From sequence record PQ438393.1: a stretch of DNA of 64,000 nt. The stretch is one strand, 5' to 3'. This document shows, one piece after another, positions 55,623 through 62,071 of the stretch. Every line of letters starts with the position of its first letter. The first letter of the stretch is position 1. A program made the position numbers and the translations under genes. This stretch comes from Escherichia phage vB_Eco_J-01. The notes beneath the pieces were generated by a model. The model saw only the letters and a list, made by a program, of their open reading frames with translations. It searched no databases and had not been told where the DNA came from.

Positions 55623-55871
55623 TTACCATCGAATAACTATTCGAGTAAAGTTTTCATCGTAATGAGATGTTTCTGTATCAATAAAAGTTGAAAAACCTTC
55701 AGCATCCAAGTTAACTTTTACAAAAGTTGGATAAAGCGTGTAGATAGCAACTTCTCTGTCTCCATCTTTAGCTGCTCTCTCAATATACGAGTAGATACTT
55801 TGTAGACTATCCTTTGCTTTGTTAAGTTCTGCGTTTTCTGCCAGTTCTCTCATTTTATCTGCTACAGTCAT
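55623..55871 (-). CDS. hypothetical protein
   Basis: 82-aa track ORF. Confidence 0.45.
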   Translation of the reverse strand: MTVADKMRELAENAELNKAKDSLQSIYSYIERAAKDGDREVAIYTLYPTFVKVNLDAEGFSTFIDTETSHYDENFTRIVIRW

Positions 55872-56140
55872 TTGTTAGTATCCTTTTCAATAAATCCTGT
55901 GGTTTTACAAGGCACACACTCATACATTTGTCCAACATCTGCAACCACCCAACCCATTCCATTGCAATAAGGACAGATTGTTTTGTTCTCTTTAGCATAC
56001 ACAGCCAGAAGTCTTTCTTCTAGCTTGTTGTAATCAGCAAGAAGAACATAGTCTCCTTCTGGATCTGGTACAATATCACATTGACCAGCAGCACCTTGGC
56101 TGTACACCTCTAAATCATATCGTGTAACCATTATTCCCAC
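55868..56140 (-). CDS. hypothetical Cys-rich protein (CDIV-DP family paralog)
   Basis: 90-aa track ORF; shares QCDIVPDPEGD...ADYNKLE with 61276-61500. Confidence 0.45.
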   Translation of the reverse strand: MGIMVTRYDLEVYSQGAAGQCDIVPDPEGDYVLLADYNKLEERLLAVYAKENKTICPYCNGMGWVVADVGQMYECVPCKTTGFIEKDTNK

Positions 56141-56349
56141 TCCGCAATCAGTTTTGGATTTTCTGCACGAGAATAGAATGTTGTAATGTCACCGTAAGTA
56201 TAATCTTGTTCCGACAGTTTTACAAGAGAGATCATTTCACGATCTGGAGTACCAGAGATCCAATCGAACACAGCAACACCACGAGGTGTTACATAGAAAC
56301 CAGATGTATTACCCGTAAACTTATCTTTTGCTTTATATAATTTGTACAC
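56131..56349 (-). CDS. hypothetical protein
   Basis: 72-aa track ORF. Confidence 0.45.
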   Translation of the reverse strand: MYKLYKAKDKFTGNTSGFYVTPRGVAVFDWISGTPDREMISLVKLSEQDYTYGDITTFYSRAENPKLIAEWE

Positions 56350-56556
56350 TTTCTACTCCTCATAGATAAAATCTATTAAAAACCTGCTATCAATCGGTAC
56401 AAACAGTTTTACTTTTCGTAAAAAACATGCTACCCTAATCTTATATACCGAGCGATAGCGAGGTAGAGAATATTCCATGTTATACATGGAAAGAGTATAT
56501 GTAATGTTACTAACTCTATAACTAACTATATACTCTTTATATCTTACTTACTACTC

Positions 56557-56820
56557 TTACTGAAGTTCAAAGATATCCCCATCTCCATCATATCCATACT
56601 CTAACTCTCCTGTATCATATAATACAATAAAGTCTGTATCATCTTCAATAAAAGATTTAGCATAATCTACTAACTCTTCATTATCTTCATAACCTTCCAG
56701 GTACTCAATACGACCATTGATACACTTAGCTGCAACAACTCCTGGGCCATTGCTTGGAGTCCACTCACTGTATACTCGCATGCCTAATTCTTTAATCATT
56801 GTTTGTCTCCTCATAATCAA
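56557..56820 (-). CDS. hypothetical acidic protein
   Basis: 87-aa track ORF. Confidence 0.45.
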   Translation of the reverse strand: MIMRRQTMIKELGMRVYSEWTPSNGPGVVAAKCINGRIEYLEGYEDNEELVDYAKSFIEDDTDFIVLYDTGELEYGYDGDGDIFELQ

Positions 56821-57016
56821 TGTAGTTGTAACATTTATTCTTTAAGAAATCTTCTGCTTGTTTATTGTGTTTCAGAATGGTGCACTTCTCTATGTTATGT
56901 TCTACATTGTTGTGTAGATTGTATAAGTTAGATGCACCATACAGGATACCAATTAACAAAAGCAAAAAGATTGCTGTTGATAACAAAAATTGTTGCAACT
57001 TGTTTACAGACTTCAT
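56792..57016 (-). CDS. small membrane-anchored protein (paralog family with 61510-61758)
   Basis: N-terminal TM helix; shared C(T/I)ILKH...AE.FL...C motif. Confidence 0.45.
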   Translation of the reverse strand: MKSVNKLQQFLLSTAIFLLLLIGILYGASNLYNLHNNVEHNIEKCTILKHNKQAEDFLKNKCYNYIDYEETNND

Positions 57017-57239
57017 AAACCCTCCTTATCGTTAGTACACATTGATACTAACAAGAAGTTAAGATCGTGTCAACATCTTTGTGTTAATTTTATCCACTGT
57101 TCACATTCTTCTTTTGTGTCGTACTCTACAGGCTTTCCTGTATCATTTCCACAACCATCTCCGAACGTAGCCCACCAGGAGAATAGAAAACAAGTTTCTC
57201 TTACTCTCCACCTATTGGCATAAGGTACAACATAATAAC

Positions 57240-57491
57240 TCATAAGATTGTGATCCTTAGTTCATTTTCTAAGGTATGTCTCACACATTCTTTGAAATTG
57301 TTATCAATATAAACCACACGTACTCCATGAGGTGTTTCTTTACATTCAAACACATTATATACAGTGTCAGATAAGACATGTTGTACGTTTACTTGTCCAA
57401 TACCATCTTTAACCACAACCATTACTTTCAGTAAACTTGTATGGTTTTTAACTTCATCTTCTACGTATGCTACAACATCTTTGATATTCAT
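57240..57491 (-). CDS. hypothetical protein
   Basis: 83-aa track ORF. Confidence 0.45.
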   Translation of the reverse strand: MNIKDVVAYVEDEVKNHTSLLKVMVVVKDGIGQVNVQHVLSDTVYNVFECKETPHGVRVVYIDNNFKECVRHTLENELRITIL

Positions 57492-57787
57492 CGTTTCTCC
57501 TGTTTAAGTACGATATAAGATTGACGAGATTTCCATCGTCCGATCTTAACAAGGCAAATAATGCCCCTCTTTAACAGATATTTCATATCTTCGTCATAAG
57601 CTGTTTGCAATTGCCACTTACTGTTAACAGGAAGAGAACCATGTACCCTTAAGTGAGCTAACAGATACTTTCTTCGCTCCTTCCCATAAGGCAGATATTG
57701 CCATTCTTTCTTTGATACAGGTTCATGTACTTTACGATGCCAGTAAGTAAGGTGTCTTCTTTTATGTAAACCCCTATTCCTTACCAT
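57488..57787 (-). CDS. hypothetical basic protein
   Basis: 99-aa track ORF, Arg/Lys/His-rich. Confidence 0.45.
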   Translation of the reverse strand: MVRNRGLHKRRHLTYWHRKVHEPVSKKEWQYLPYGKERRKYLLAHLRVHGSLPVNSKWQLQTAYDEDMKYLLKRGIICLVKIGRWKSRQSYIVLKQEKR

Positions 57788-60513: not shown

Positions 60514-61097
60514 TACACATCCTCCATTTGGAACATCTTCTTGTGGTTAGAATAGATCTGTTTGAAAATCTTGTCAAGGCGTTCATATGATTCTTTATGC
60601 TCTTGTTTCCATCCGTGATTTCGGATTTTATCTGCCAGATCATAAACCTCGCATAAAACTTTGGCAAAGTTGGTATTATCTATAGCACAAGCCTCAAAAC
60701 CTTGAACTAAACCCTCTACATCATACCACGTATAGTCAGAGTCACTAGGAGGATTCCCTGCATCGGCTAAACGTTGCCTCACCCATTCGATACGTTTTTC
60801 ATTCAAATGGCACTTACCTTCCCTACATTCTTGTTCTAATTCTTCTTTAGATTCGTTGAATGGGTGAAGGACAGGTAGCTCTGCTTTTTGCAATTGCTCC
60901 AGATATTCTCCTACAATGCGCATAGCTTCACTGTGTGTACACTTTCTACCTGTGTGCCAGTAACGGAAGATACTTTCTGTTAAACAGATGTTTTTACTAA
61001 ACATCGCATTGTCTTTAACATTCGATCTATTAACCCAGTCTATATAATATACATAAAACTGCAATAATTCATAACTGCTTGGTATAATTTTACTCAT
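60513..61097 (-). CDS. hypothetical protein (LHPFN family paralog)
   Basis: 194 aa; shares LLQFY, LHPFN and HLNEKRIEWVRQRL with 61721-62071. Confidence 0.55.
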   Translation of the reverse strand: MSKIIPSSYELLQFYVYYIDWVNRSNVKDNAMFSKNICLTESIFRYWHTGRKCTHSEAMRIVGEYLEQLQKAELPVLHPFNESKEELEQECREGKCHLNEKRIEWVRQRLADAGNPPSDSDYTWYDVEGLVQGFEACAIDNTNFAKVLCEVYDLADKIRNHGWKQEHKESYERLDKIFKQIYSNHKKMFQMEDV

Positions 61098-61106
61098 GAT
61101 CTCTCC

Positions 61107-61274
61107 TTAATTGTGAAAAATGTTATCGATCAGTATGACTAATAGTACGAGGATAGAAGGGAGCAGGAATAGAAATCTTAACATTATGTGATGCGTGTGA
61201 GAAGCGGCTTTAGCGCCAGCCGCCAATAAGCCTACTAATCCTACAATAAAGAGCAGTTGTTCAGGGACACCCAT
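61107..61274 (-). CDS. small membrane protein (55 aa, two TM segments)
   Basis: hand-found ORF; stop followed by RBS and start of next gene. Confidence 0.35.
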   Translation of the reverse strand: MGVPEQLLFIVGLVGLLAAGAKAASHTHHIMLRFLFLLPSILVLLVILIDNIFHN

Positions 61275-61275
61275 A

Positions 61276-61500
61276 TTATGAAACACTTGGATACTCCGTA
61301 AGTTTGGCTAATAGTTGGATATGTGGACACGTAAACTGTTGTCCTGGATAGCGTGAGCTAATATCATCCAGTAAAGCAATCACAGCATTGTGCAATGCTT
61401 CGTAATCCTCATAATACACCATCTCTCCATTAGGATCTTCAACAATGTCGCAGTGACAAGCGTGAGCAGTACACGCATCCCATTCCAGACGTTTTACCAT
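61276..61500 (-). CDS. hypothetical Cys/His-rich protein (CDIV-DP family paralog)
   Basis: 74-aa track ORF; shares HCDIVEDPNGE...YEDYE with 55868-56140. Confidence 0.45.
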   Translation of the reverse strand: MVKRLEWDACTAHACHCDIVEDPNGEMVYYEDYEALHNAVIALLDDISSRYPGQQFTCPHIQLLAKLTEYPSVS

Positions 61501-61509
61501 AAATCCTCC

Positions 61510-61758
61510 TTACTCATACATTTGATAAGATACATAACGATTGCAATCAAGTGCGAGAAACTTTTCAGCATCTCTTTGATGCTTGAACACAATACACTGT
61601 TCTTTTTTAGCTTCACTTTCACGAGCTTCTCTTGCCATATACTCACCTAAACGAATGATACCAGAGAATAACACGTATGCAAGAATAAGACAAACAGAGA
61701 TTGCACAGAAAGTTTTAAACTTAATCATTGTATTCCTCCATATCACGAATACGATCAA
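61510..61758 (-). CDS. small membrane-anchored protein (paralog of 56792-57016)
   Basis: N-terminal TM; shared CIVFKH...AEKFL...C motif. Confidence 0.45.
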   Translation of the reverse strand: MIVFVIWRNTMIKFKTFCAISVCLILAYVLFSGIIRLGEYMAREARESEAKKEQCIVFKHQRDAEKFLALDCNRYVSYQMYE

Positions 61759-62071
61759 TCACCCATTGTACACGTTCTTTGTTAAGGTGTGCAATGCCTA
61801 ACTCTGTTTCCGTAAAGTAATGTGAGAAATCCGTATTAAACGGATGTAAATGGTTCAAACCCGCTTTCTTAAATTGTTCCTTCATTTCCTCTCGTACAGA
61901 GGATTGGAGCTTTGCTACATTCTCAACATCTTTTATCCAAGCAATATTGTACAAGAAGTCTACAAGACACGTGCAAAGACCATAATGCTTTTTGCTAAAG
62001 TTTGTATCTTCTTGCTCTAACCACCATTCATAAAATTGTAGCAAATAAGGGCTGCTTTTCATGTTACACAC
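61721..62071 (-). CDS. hypothetical protein (LHPFN family paralog)
   Basis: 116-aa track ORF; shares motifs with 60513-61097. Confidence 0.5.
   Translation of the reverse strand: MCNMKSSPYLLQFYEWWLEQEDTNFSKKHYGLCTCLVDFLYNIAWIKDVENVAKLQSSVREEMKEQFKKAGLNHLHPFNTDFSHYFTETELGIAHLNKERVQWVIDRIRDMEEYND

Follow-up and report, generated by a model that had tools for sequence, protein, structure and literature searches.

Three sets of related small proteins in a probable block of accessory genes at the left genome end of a phi92-like phage

We examined a minus-strand block of small genes that spans about 52.5–64 kb of a 64,000-nucleotide window of DNA from Escherichia phage vB_Eco_J-01 (sequence record PQ438393.1). 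The window is phi92-like Justusliebigvirus (Stephanstirmvirinae) DNA, and the region of interest covers phi92 gp006–gp025, the counterparts of which are all labelled hypothetical in the phi92 record. Six proteins of this region form three homologous pairs, here called LHPFN (gp006 and gp010), MEMB (membrane-anchored; gp007 and gp022) and CDIV (Cys-rich; gp008 and gp025; Table 1). At the DNA level a 6.3-kb stretch matches 55 phi92-like Escherichia phages at 96.6–98% identity (98% for phi92 itself). The reading that we favour, and regard as reasonably probable, is that the block is an accessory region at the left end of a phi92-like genome, housing three anciently related sets of small proteins that would have host-interaction roles.

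The pairs had been proposed in a sequence-only reading of the window, which described three recurring families of small early proteins. Open reading frames (ORFs) are present at all the coordinates it gave, and the three pairings are significant by BLASTP, by all-versus-all comparison, by shuffling and by PHROG profiles. In pairwise BLASTP, gp010 and gp006 align over 114 amino acids (aa) at 30% identity (E = 3e-11), gp022 and gp007 over 51 aa at 29% (E = 2e-8), and gp025 and gp008 over 44 aa at 36% (E = 6e-7). When all 377 window ORFs were compared with one another, the pairs gave E-values of 5e-9 (LHPFN), 9.5e-6 (MEMB) and 2.6e-4 (CDIV), and made up three of the five pairs below E 1e-2. Smith-Waterman scores as high as those observed were reached in 0 of 5000 shuffles, with Gumbel p values of 1.4e-9, 2.3e-7 and 1.5e-6, respectively. 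The MEMB signal is kept when the hydrophobic N-termini are left out and only the soluble C-terminal parts are compared (shuffle p = 3.6e-7), and is therefore no artefact of transmembrane (TM) composition. PHROG matches are reciprocal in all three pairs, every protein hitting the profile of its partner. No DNA-level repeat is left between the paralogs in the window, and iterative pair hidden Markov model searches inside it gave no further family members.

Several other candidate relationships were rejected. A fourth pair, gp026 (55623–55871) and gp005 (62085–62384), was prompted by a DNA repeat at the 5' ends and fell short of significance (BLASTP E = 0.016 over 14 aa, p = 0.06 by shuffling, no cross-match to PHROGs). 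A cryptic third CDIV member, gp023, was set aside at p = 0.06, and gp011 and gp012, both 'Eaa-like' in phi92, share no similarity as paralogs.

All six genes are real and under purifying selection. We compared ORF integrity and pN/pS (nonsynonymous to synonymous polymorphism) for 22 genes of the block across nine Justusliebigvirus genomes. The six ORFs are intact in all nine, except for the 3' end of gp007 in PD06, which is reshaped by an adjoining insertion. The pN/pS values are 0.08 for gp006, 0.11 for gp010, 0.06 for gp008, 0.07 for gp025, 0.18 for gp022 and 0.46 for gp007. The GTG start of gp006 at 62071 is preceded by a ribosome-binding site (RBS), AAGGAG, and the gene is intact in 8/8 relatives. 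Two starts were revised. For gp007, ATG 61728 is likelier than the 61758 first proposed, with an RBS (GGAGGA) and an 8-nucleotide (nt) overlap with the gp006 stop; for gp025, ATG 56131 is likelier than 56140, its 'MVTR..' paralleling the 'MVKR..' of gp008.

Table 1. Features of the gene block, in window coordinates (AF2, AlphaFold2)
Feature	Position	Strand	Description	Evidence
gp006 (LHPFN-B)	61721..62071	-	single LHPFN domain, 116 aa, phrog_2510	BLASTP, PHROG, AF2
gp010 (LHPFN-A)	60513..61097	-	194 aa, phrog_27059	BLASTP, PHROG
gp007 (MEMB-B)	61510..61728	-	72 aa, hydrophobic N-terminus and Cys-bracketed core CIVFKHQRDAEKFLALDC	BLASTP, PHROG
gp022 (MEMB-A)	56792..57016	-	74 aa, predicted signal peptide or anchor and core CTILKHNKQAEDFLKNKC	BLASTP, PHROG
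gp008 (CDIV-B)	61276..61500	-	74 aa, shared N-module and gp008-type tail	BLASTP, PHROG
gp025 (CDIV-A)	55868..56131	-	87 aa, N-module (about 1–47) and DnaJ-like CxxCxGxG zinc finger (about 52–84)	BLASTP, PHROG
gp009	61107..61274	-	small hydrophobic protein between gp008 and gp010	ORF, phi92 record, hydropathy
Candidate promoter	57045..57073	-	sigma-70-type, TTGACA-N17-TAGTAT, in the gap directly upstream of gp022	consensus match only
Intergenic gap after gp026	55518..55622	-	two GC-rich hairpins (one UUCG loop)	sequence reading
Terminator-like hairpins	52467-52496 and 52846-52865		strong, bidirectional, at the end of the leftward block	

LHPFN is a domain of ~110 aa (PHROG families phrog_2510, phrog_27059 and phrog_6418). 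gp006 matches phrog_2510 at E = 2e-25; gp010 matches phrog_27059 at E = 2e-139 and phrog_2510 at E = 3e-17. gp010 is a fusion protein, with an N-terminal LHPFN domain (about residues 1–116) and a C-terminal domain matching phrog_24126/8348; in ESCO5, a Phapecoctavirus, the C-terminal half is a separate gene right after an LHPFN gene (7798–8124 plus 8124–8351). The shared sequence first given for the pair, HLNEKRIEWVRQRL, is the version in gp010; its counterpart in gp006 reads HLNKERVQWVIDRI. Nor is the family limited to these two proteins, since some relatives hold two more copies directly past the window end. A search for LHPFN genes found 467 places across 177 records, with 2–5 copies per Stephanstirmvirinae genome, often as fused tandem domains, and four members in the complete genome of the relative KMB37. 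The extra KMB37 copies, C and D, are an overlapping tandem pair, 44–46% identical (OR525700.1 147682–148417, L004 47682–48417 in our numbering), with a stop codon 4 nt past the position equivalent to the last window base (64000).

A profile search covering 1.84 billion representatives returned 909 LHPFN clusters at E ≤ 1e-3 and 237 at E ≤ 1e-10. The relatives are mostly stand-alone proteins of 100–125 aa; among the best 150 matches are 11 two-domain fusions and one three-domain protein. The sole Pfam domain on them is DUF551, in a DUF551+LHPFN fusion (P0072, Av-05). For LHPFN itself we found no Pfam entry and no solved structural relative. The domain occurs in accessory small-gene regions of Proteobacteria myo-, sipho- and podoviruses, within arrays of small hypothetical genes; in a Rhizobium phage of the Autographiviridae only two genes lie between it and the left end. 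All of the named members that we checked belong to phages (Citrobacter phage Tr1, with two copies, Av-05 and Burkholderia jumbo phages), and among them LHPFN has the appearance of a large phage-specific family.

Computed over 116 representatives with a mean identity of 33%, the LHPFN signature comprises S7, L10, F13-Y14, G31-L32-C33 (97–99%), E62, Q66-F67, A70-G71-L72, P77-F78 (99%), N97, R100 (99%) and W103-V104. gp006 carries every signature residue tested, P77-F78-N79 included; gp010 carries the signature except for a cleanly aligned G-L-C (N-I-C-L there). The median isoelectric point of the 116 representatives is 5.3. Structure prediction, proposed in the earlier reading as a check, gave a confident all-alpha, six-helix AF2 model of gp006 (predicted local distance difference test [pLDDT] 88.7, predicted template modelling score [pTM] 0.82). 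Its neighbours in BFVD are only uncharacterised phage proteins, from phages of Pectobacterium, Rhizobium, Burkholderia, Achromobacter, Delftia, Klebsiella and Shigella, and those with template modelling scores of 0.7–0.78 are family members. The recurring fusions in tandem and the overlap of genes C and D hint, by Rosetta-stone logic, at domains that function as pairs. LHPFN would be a soluble, mildly acidic, paired cytoplasmic binder or enzyme with a conserved site; as pseudo-dimers the domains may bind one conserved ligand or partner through the signature residues, and different copies would be tuned to different variants or contexts.

The CDIV proteins (phrog_23083, phrog_22955 and phrog_23941) resemble each other only over their N-terminal ~44 residues, MV.R.E.D.C..HAC.CDIV.DP.G..V.YEDY..L. 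The similarity first reported thus stands for this segment and not for the whole proteins, and CDIV is best described, from these alignments, as a portable ~40-aa N-terminal module spread by domain shuffling. It is joined to four different C-terminal parts: the tail of gp008, also present in Kagunavirus HSE2 and ESCO5; the DnaJ-like zinc finger of gp025, which in Phapecoctavirus stands alone under the wrong name 'DNA ligase'; in Wifcevirus 4M-7n, an unrelated domain; and an additional domain, carried by an ESCO5 protein of 148 aa, whose homologue in the window is the N-terminal part of gp011. The first ~77 aa of gp011 (59827–60513, minus strand) hit the same PHROGs (1972, 11307) as the C-domain of that ESCO5 protein (L006 6222–6668) and are another shuffled module of the block. 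The CDIV module would supply a common docking or oligomerisation function.

Full-length gp025 is confined to Justusliebigvirus; its zinc finger alone is widespread. The finger has two CxxCxGxG-type motifs, CPYCNGMG and CVPCKTTG, is annotated in the phi92 record as 'predicted DnaJ-like zinc finger', and scores 15.9 bits (E = 0.016) against the DnaJ central cysteine-rich domain (PF00684), for which the gathering cut-off is 32.7 bits. It also matches phrog_13972, whose label 'DNA ligase' looks mis-named. A 48-aa ORF elsewhere in the window (35960–36106, plus strand), with CPICGGTG, CWNCNGLG and an acidic tail, resembles the gp025 finger (E = 2.6e-4) and looks like a distant stand-alone relative of this C-terminal module. 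For gp008, a word-indexed search returned close relatives only, and AF2 predicts, at low confidence (pLDDT 66.7), a beta-hairpin leading into a long helix (E19-21/E27-29/H30-50). Residues 2–48 of gp008 weakly match the Lar-type phrog_3592 (E = 8.7e-4). We rejected gp008 as a Lar restriction-alleviation protein (PF14354 / phrog_3592): there is no Pfam match, and gp025, HSE2 and ESCO5 do not keep the Cys/His pattern of the module.

The MEMB proteins (phrog_15662 and phrog_23204) combine a hydrophobic N-terminus, with a best 19-aa window of mean Kyte-Doolittle hydropathy 2.56 in gp007 and 2.41 in gp022, and a common core of ~25 aa, E.C[IT][IV][LF]KH.[KR].AE.FL...C..Y[IV].Y. For gp022 the phi92 record gives a SignalP signal peptide with a probability of 0.985. 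The C-x17-C core is invariant in gp007, gp022 and ESCO5 4883–5083, and the cores of gp007 and the ESCO5 protein are ~65% identical. gp007 has the highest pN/pS of the 22 block genes; its substitutions fall in the post-TM linker and the C-terminal tip, the Cys-bracketed core being invariant, and the PD06-type insertion remodels its C-terminus. gp022 was found in all 55 Justusliebigvirus records and nowhere else, in two allele groups (at least 95% versus 90–95% identity). The LHPFN-to-MEMB adjacency of gp006 and gp007, with overlapping stop and start, is conserved. From topology rules and the invariant C-x17-C core, the core is probably periplasmic with a disulfide between the two cysteines. gp007 and gp022 would be exported or membrane-anchored mini-proteins, disulfide-stapled in the periplasm, with an effect on the envelope, such as superinfection exclusion or action against a periplasmic host target.

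The duplications behind these pairs appear to be old. LHPFN copies within one genome are 19–45% identical, and the tree does not cluster copies by genome. gp007 and gp008 are 42% and 59% identical to their ESCO5 orthologs, versus 29% and 36% to their in-genome paralogs gp022 and gp025. Because paralogs are more diverged than cross-genus orthologs, the duplications would predate the genus split, unless divergence was very fast. The first 13 kb of ESCO5 hold five LHPFN genes, one of them directly upstream of the single MEMB gene of this phage, which also has a gp008-like gene slightly beyond that; this shared order argues that the gp006-gp007-gp008 cassette is older than the genus split.

Turnover of the block, as traced by genome comparison, involves duplication, horizontal exchange, fusion and fission, module shuffling and natural deletion. 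KMB37 copy D (L004 48049–48417) is 90% identical to the first gene of ESCO5 (L006 361–735), whereas neighbouring orthologs are 40–55% identical, which points to recent exchange between genera. In phi92, D is reduced to its final 17 codons, next to a deletion of ~795 bp; a Logan contig from metagenomic data has a single C-like LHPFN gene (L015 332–697), and KMB37 has both copies. Two natural in-frame deletions, both clean fusions at 3-residue microhomologies, occur in otherwise colinear metagenomic phi92-like contigs. One joins gp010(1-114) to gp015 at 'DAG' with the loss of gp011–gp014 (L015 3618–4118; window 58688–61097); the other joins gp008(1-32) to gp023 at 'YED' with the loss of gp009–gp022, LHPFN-A and MEMB-A included (L016 851–1072; window 56557–61500). 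Much of the block is thus dispensable in at least some populations. We picture three ancient sets of small proteins that would be continually reshaped, including by exchange between co-infecting phages.

The same exchange could account for more than turnover: the copies may have been gathered independently from the pools of other phages, by recombination in a mosaic early region. The 90% match of copy D fits this, as do the assignment of every copy to its own PHROG, the presence of the LHPFN domain in many unrelated phage groups and of the CDIV module in Kagunavirus and Wifcevirus proteins, and an indel hotspot between gp007 and gp008. However, real duplication in place is also indicated by the overlapping C/D copies and by the two-domain fusion proteins, and no closer donor was found for gp006, gp010, gp022 or gp025; we consider independent acquisition unlikely.

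Slightly less likely still is a recent, in situ form of the duplication described in the sequence-only reading, in which anti-defence genes arose in tandem in this lineage and diverged fast by arms-race positive selection. The order LHPFN, MEMB, CDIV does occur twice (gp006-007-008 and gp010 ... gp022 ... gp025) with similar divergence (identities of about 29–36%), gp022 and the gp025 N-module are confined to Justusliebigvirus, C/D is in relatives a true tandem pair that expands and contracts, and gp007 tops the block in pN/pS. Yet DNA similarity is gone, orthologs in another genus are closer than the paralogs, the LHPFN tree lacks grouping by genome, purifying selection is strong on five of the six genes, and three pairs would fall into colinear order by chance with a probability of 1 in 6. 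We also considered a segmental duplication of the three-gene cassette; the colinear order carries the same 1-in-6 chance and ESCO5 has the B-type cassette only, which tips the balance neither way. The 'local duplication and divergence' first described is one part of the picture: the paralogy holds, but the sets are ancient, shuffled and partly exchanged.

Returning to the favoured reading, the genes of the block are probably accessory, host-interacting and early. They share one orientation, the first lying a few hundred bases inside the left direct terminal repeat (DTR), and this site and orientation fit an early gene class; 'early' is accordingly used here as a positional label. Small dispensable genes beside the left DTR make an accessory or host-interaction role plausible, and to that extent the earlier interpretation of the region as a host-takeover or anti-defence locus is partly supported; in Pfam, PHROG, NCBIfam and PADLOC searches no known anti-defence, defence or takeover family is matched by any of the three families, and PADLOC-DB profiles gave no matches to the six proteins. 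A literature search found no transcriptome of phi92-like or rV5-like phages and no mention of these PHROGs.

Several observations weigh against the favoured reading. Pfam, NCBIfam and PADLOC give no functional match for the six proteins, and their PHROG matches are all of 'unknown function' apart from the weak Lar-like match of gp008 and the 'DNA ligase' label matched by gp025. The pN/pS values of the LHPFN and CDIV genes (0.06–0.11) carry no signature of an ongoing arms race, only gp007 being raised (0.46). Promoter-like sites are at chance level (43 versus 44.5 expected). gp010 lacks a cleanly aligned C33, and the gp008 model is of low confidence.

A bolder proposal, which we regard as improbable, is that LHPFN is a previously undescribed phage-specific functional fold, either an enzyme built on Cys33/Glu62/Gln66/Asn97/Arg100 or a pseudo-dimer that sequesters a ligand or signal. 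It would act in the first minutes against host immunity, its 2–5 diverged copies would be a toolkit against defence variants, and the adjacent exported MEMB protein would be a coupled envelope-acting partner. LHPFN might instead serve the phage's own programme, as a regulator of transcription or replication or as an RNA-polymerase or sigma binder like T4 AsiA, with copies acting at different stages. Strong purifying selection, the invariant signature, the small, helical, acidic character of the proteins, neighbouring genes annotated as putative transcription factors and a weak, non-significant NCBIfam match to the sigma-binding protein Crl (E = 0.032) are consistent with such a role. The variation from two to five copies among close relatives, and the natural deletions that remove the gp010 C-domain or the whole gene, would be unusual for a core regulator, and no DNA-binding or known regulator fold was found; we rate this alternative as doubtful. 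We give practically no weight to the possibility that the motifs are chance matches, named at the outset as what would undo the families, or that the ORFs are not genes: the proteins are short and the CDIV match covers just 44 residues, but all pairings are significant, profile matches are reciprocal, ORFs are intact, pN/pS is well below 1 and the families are large.

The closest known relatives of the window proteins are the PHROG families and phi92 gp006, gp007, gp008, gp010, gp022 and gp025 themselves, which are the same families and genes. Their annotations read 'unknown function' or 'hypothetical', and the paralogy between PHROGs, the domain architecture and the family-wide LHPFN signature are unrecorded in the annotations and literature searched. 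Phage accessory regions are already known to contain multigene families and mosaic modules. Large lytic phages carry arrays of small non-essential early or pre-early takeover genes, as in the early genes of T4. The T5 pre-early region is another set of small host-takeover genes (bioRxiv 10.64898/2026.01.13.699316). The block resembles such arrays in its terminal site, single orientation, packed small ORFs, overlapping stops and starts and dispensability, and in the weak similarity of gp003 to the T4 goF family (phrog_2980, E = 1.7e-6); it differs in that the six proteins have no homologue among the characterised early proteins of T4 or T5 and in being 'early' by position.

The lambdoid exo-xis early region, with its mosaic Ea22 variants and portable domains such as DUF551 (PMC10834534), offers a second parallel. 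The Ea22 variants likewise have a shared N-terminal segment with unrelated C-termini, an early-region site, small acidic domains and unknown function, and LHPFN itself occurs fused to DUF551 in distant members of its family. Lambdoid phages are temperate, however, whereas the phage here is a strictly lytic 148-kb myovirus, and no match to the DUF551 (PF04448) or Ead_Ea22 Pfam profiles was found for any of the six proteins at E ≤ 1. Among small exported superinfection-exclusion or envelope-targeting phage proteins are T4 Imm and Sp and T5 Llp. gp007 and gp022 share with them short length, an N-terminal segment for export or anchoring and a small soluble part, and gp007 evolves faster than its neighbours; they differ in lacking a lipobox and any similarity to an annotated PHROG of that kind.

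The only small accessory phi92-like protein with experimental data that we found is Ksap2 (Bas60_220), a small Stephanstirmvirinae-restricted protein that triggers the KpAvs2 defence (PMC11564622). Its ortholog in the window (34157–34492, plus strand; 94.6% identity) lies between nrdA and nrdB, at another locus, and has no overall homology to the three families. Its C-terminus, ...MCDIVEDLNGSN, ends in CDIVEDLNG and resembles CDIVEDPNG of gp008; the pattern CDIV.D..G occurs 3 times in the six-frame window and in 0 of 200 shuffles. The codons of this tail coincide in part with the Shine-Dalgarno sequence and ATG of nrdB, an overlap that may explain the conservation of the tail. We rejected Ksap2 as a member of the three families, given its location elsewhere in the window, a likeness limited to a 9-aa motif and the probable confounding by the nrdB start.

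Phages of the Stephanstirmvirinae (phi92, phAPEC8 and relatives) are therapy candidates with a broad host range, and their left-end block is annotated almost wholly as hypothetical; six of its anonymous ORFs now form three defined units. LHPFN combines a clear conserved site with a confidently predicted fold, has no structural relative and is a concrete target for takeover and anti-defence screens, a reasonable if unproven lead. The natural variants, with deletions, fusions or altered copy number, reveal which genes these phages can do without and the ways in which the region evolves. If the families are ordinary accessory genes without a defence phenotype, the gain is limited to better annotation.

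Among the neighbouring genes, gp009 sits in the tight gp006-gp010 cassette and has no paralog in the three families; its best 19-aa window has a mean Kyte-Doolittle value of 2.78, and its pN/pS is 0.05. The gap after gp026 is a possible transcript boundary downstream of the paralog-bearing block, as read from its hairpins. gp003, gp002 and gp024 (62597–63049, 63258–63479 and 56131–56349, all on the minus strand) have two paralogs each in ESCO5, side by side in the case of gp003 and of gp024, which suggests that paralog expansion in the block is general across the subfamily. In PD06-type genomes a further gene, of 82 aa, is inserted between gp007 and gp008 (L012 6045–6293; window 61500/61510 junction); it is annotated as an M20/M25/M40 metallo-hydrolase, an implausible label, and belongs to none of the three families. 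Several genomes deposited as 'Campylobacter phage' with host C. jejuni (MG065639.1, MG065645.1 and MG065650.1) are near-identical to phi92-like or phAPEC8-like phages of E. coli, and their host label possibly reflects contamination or mislabelling.

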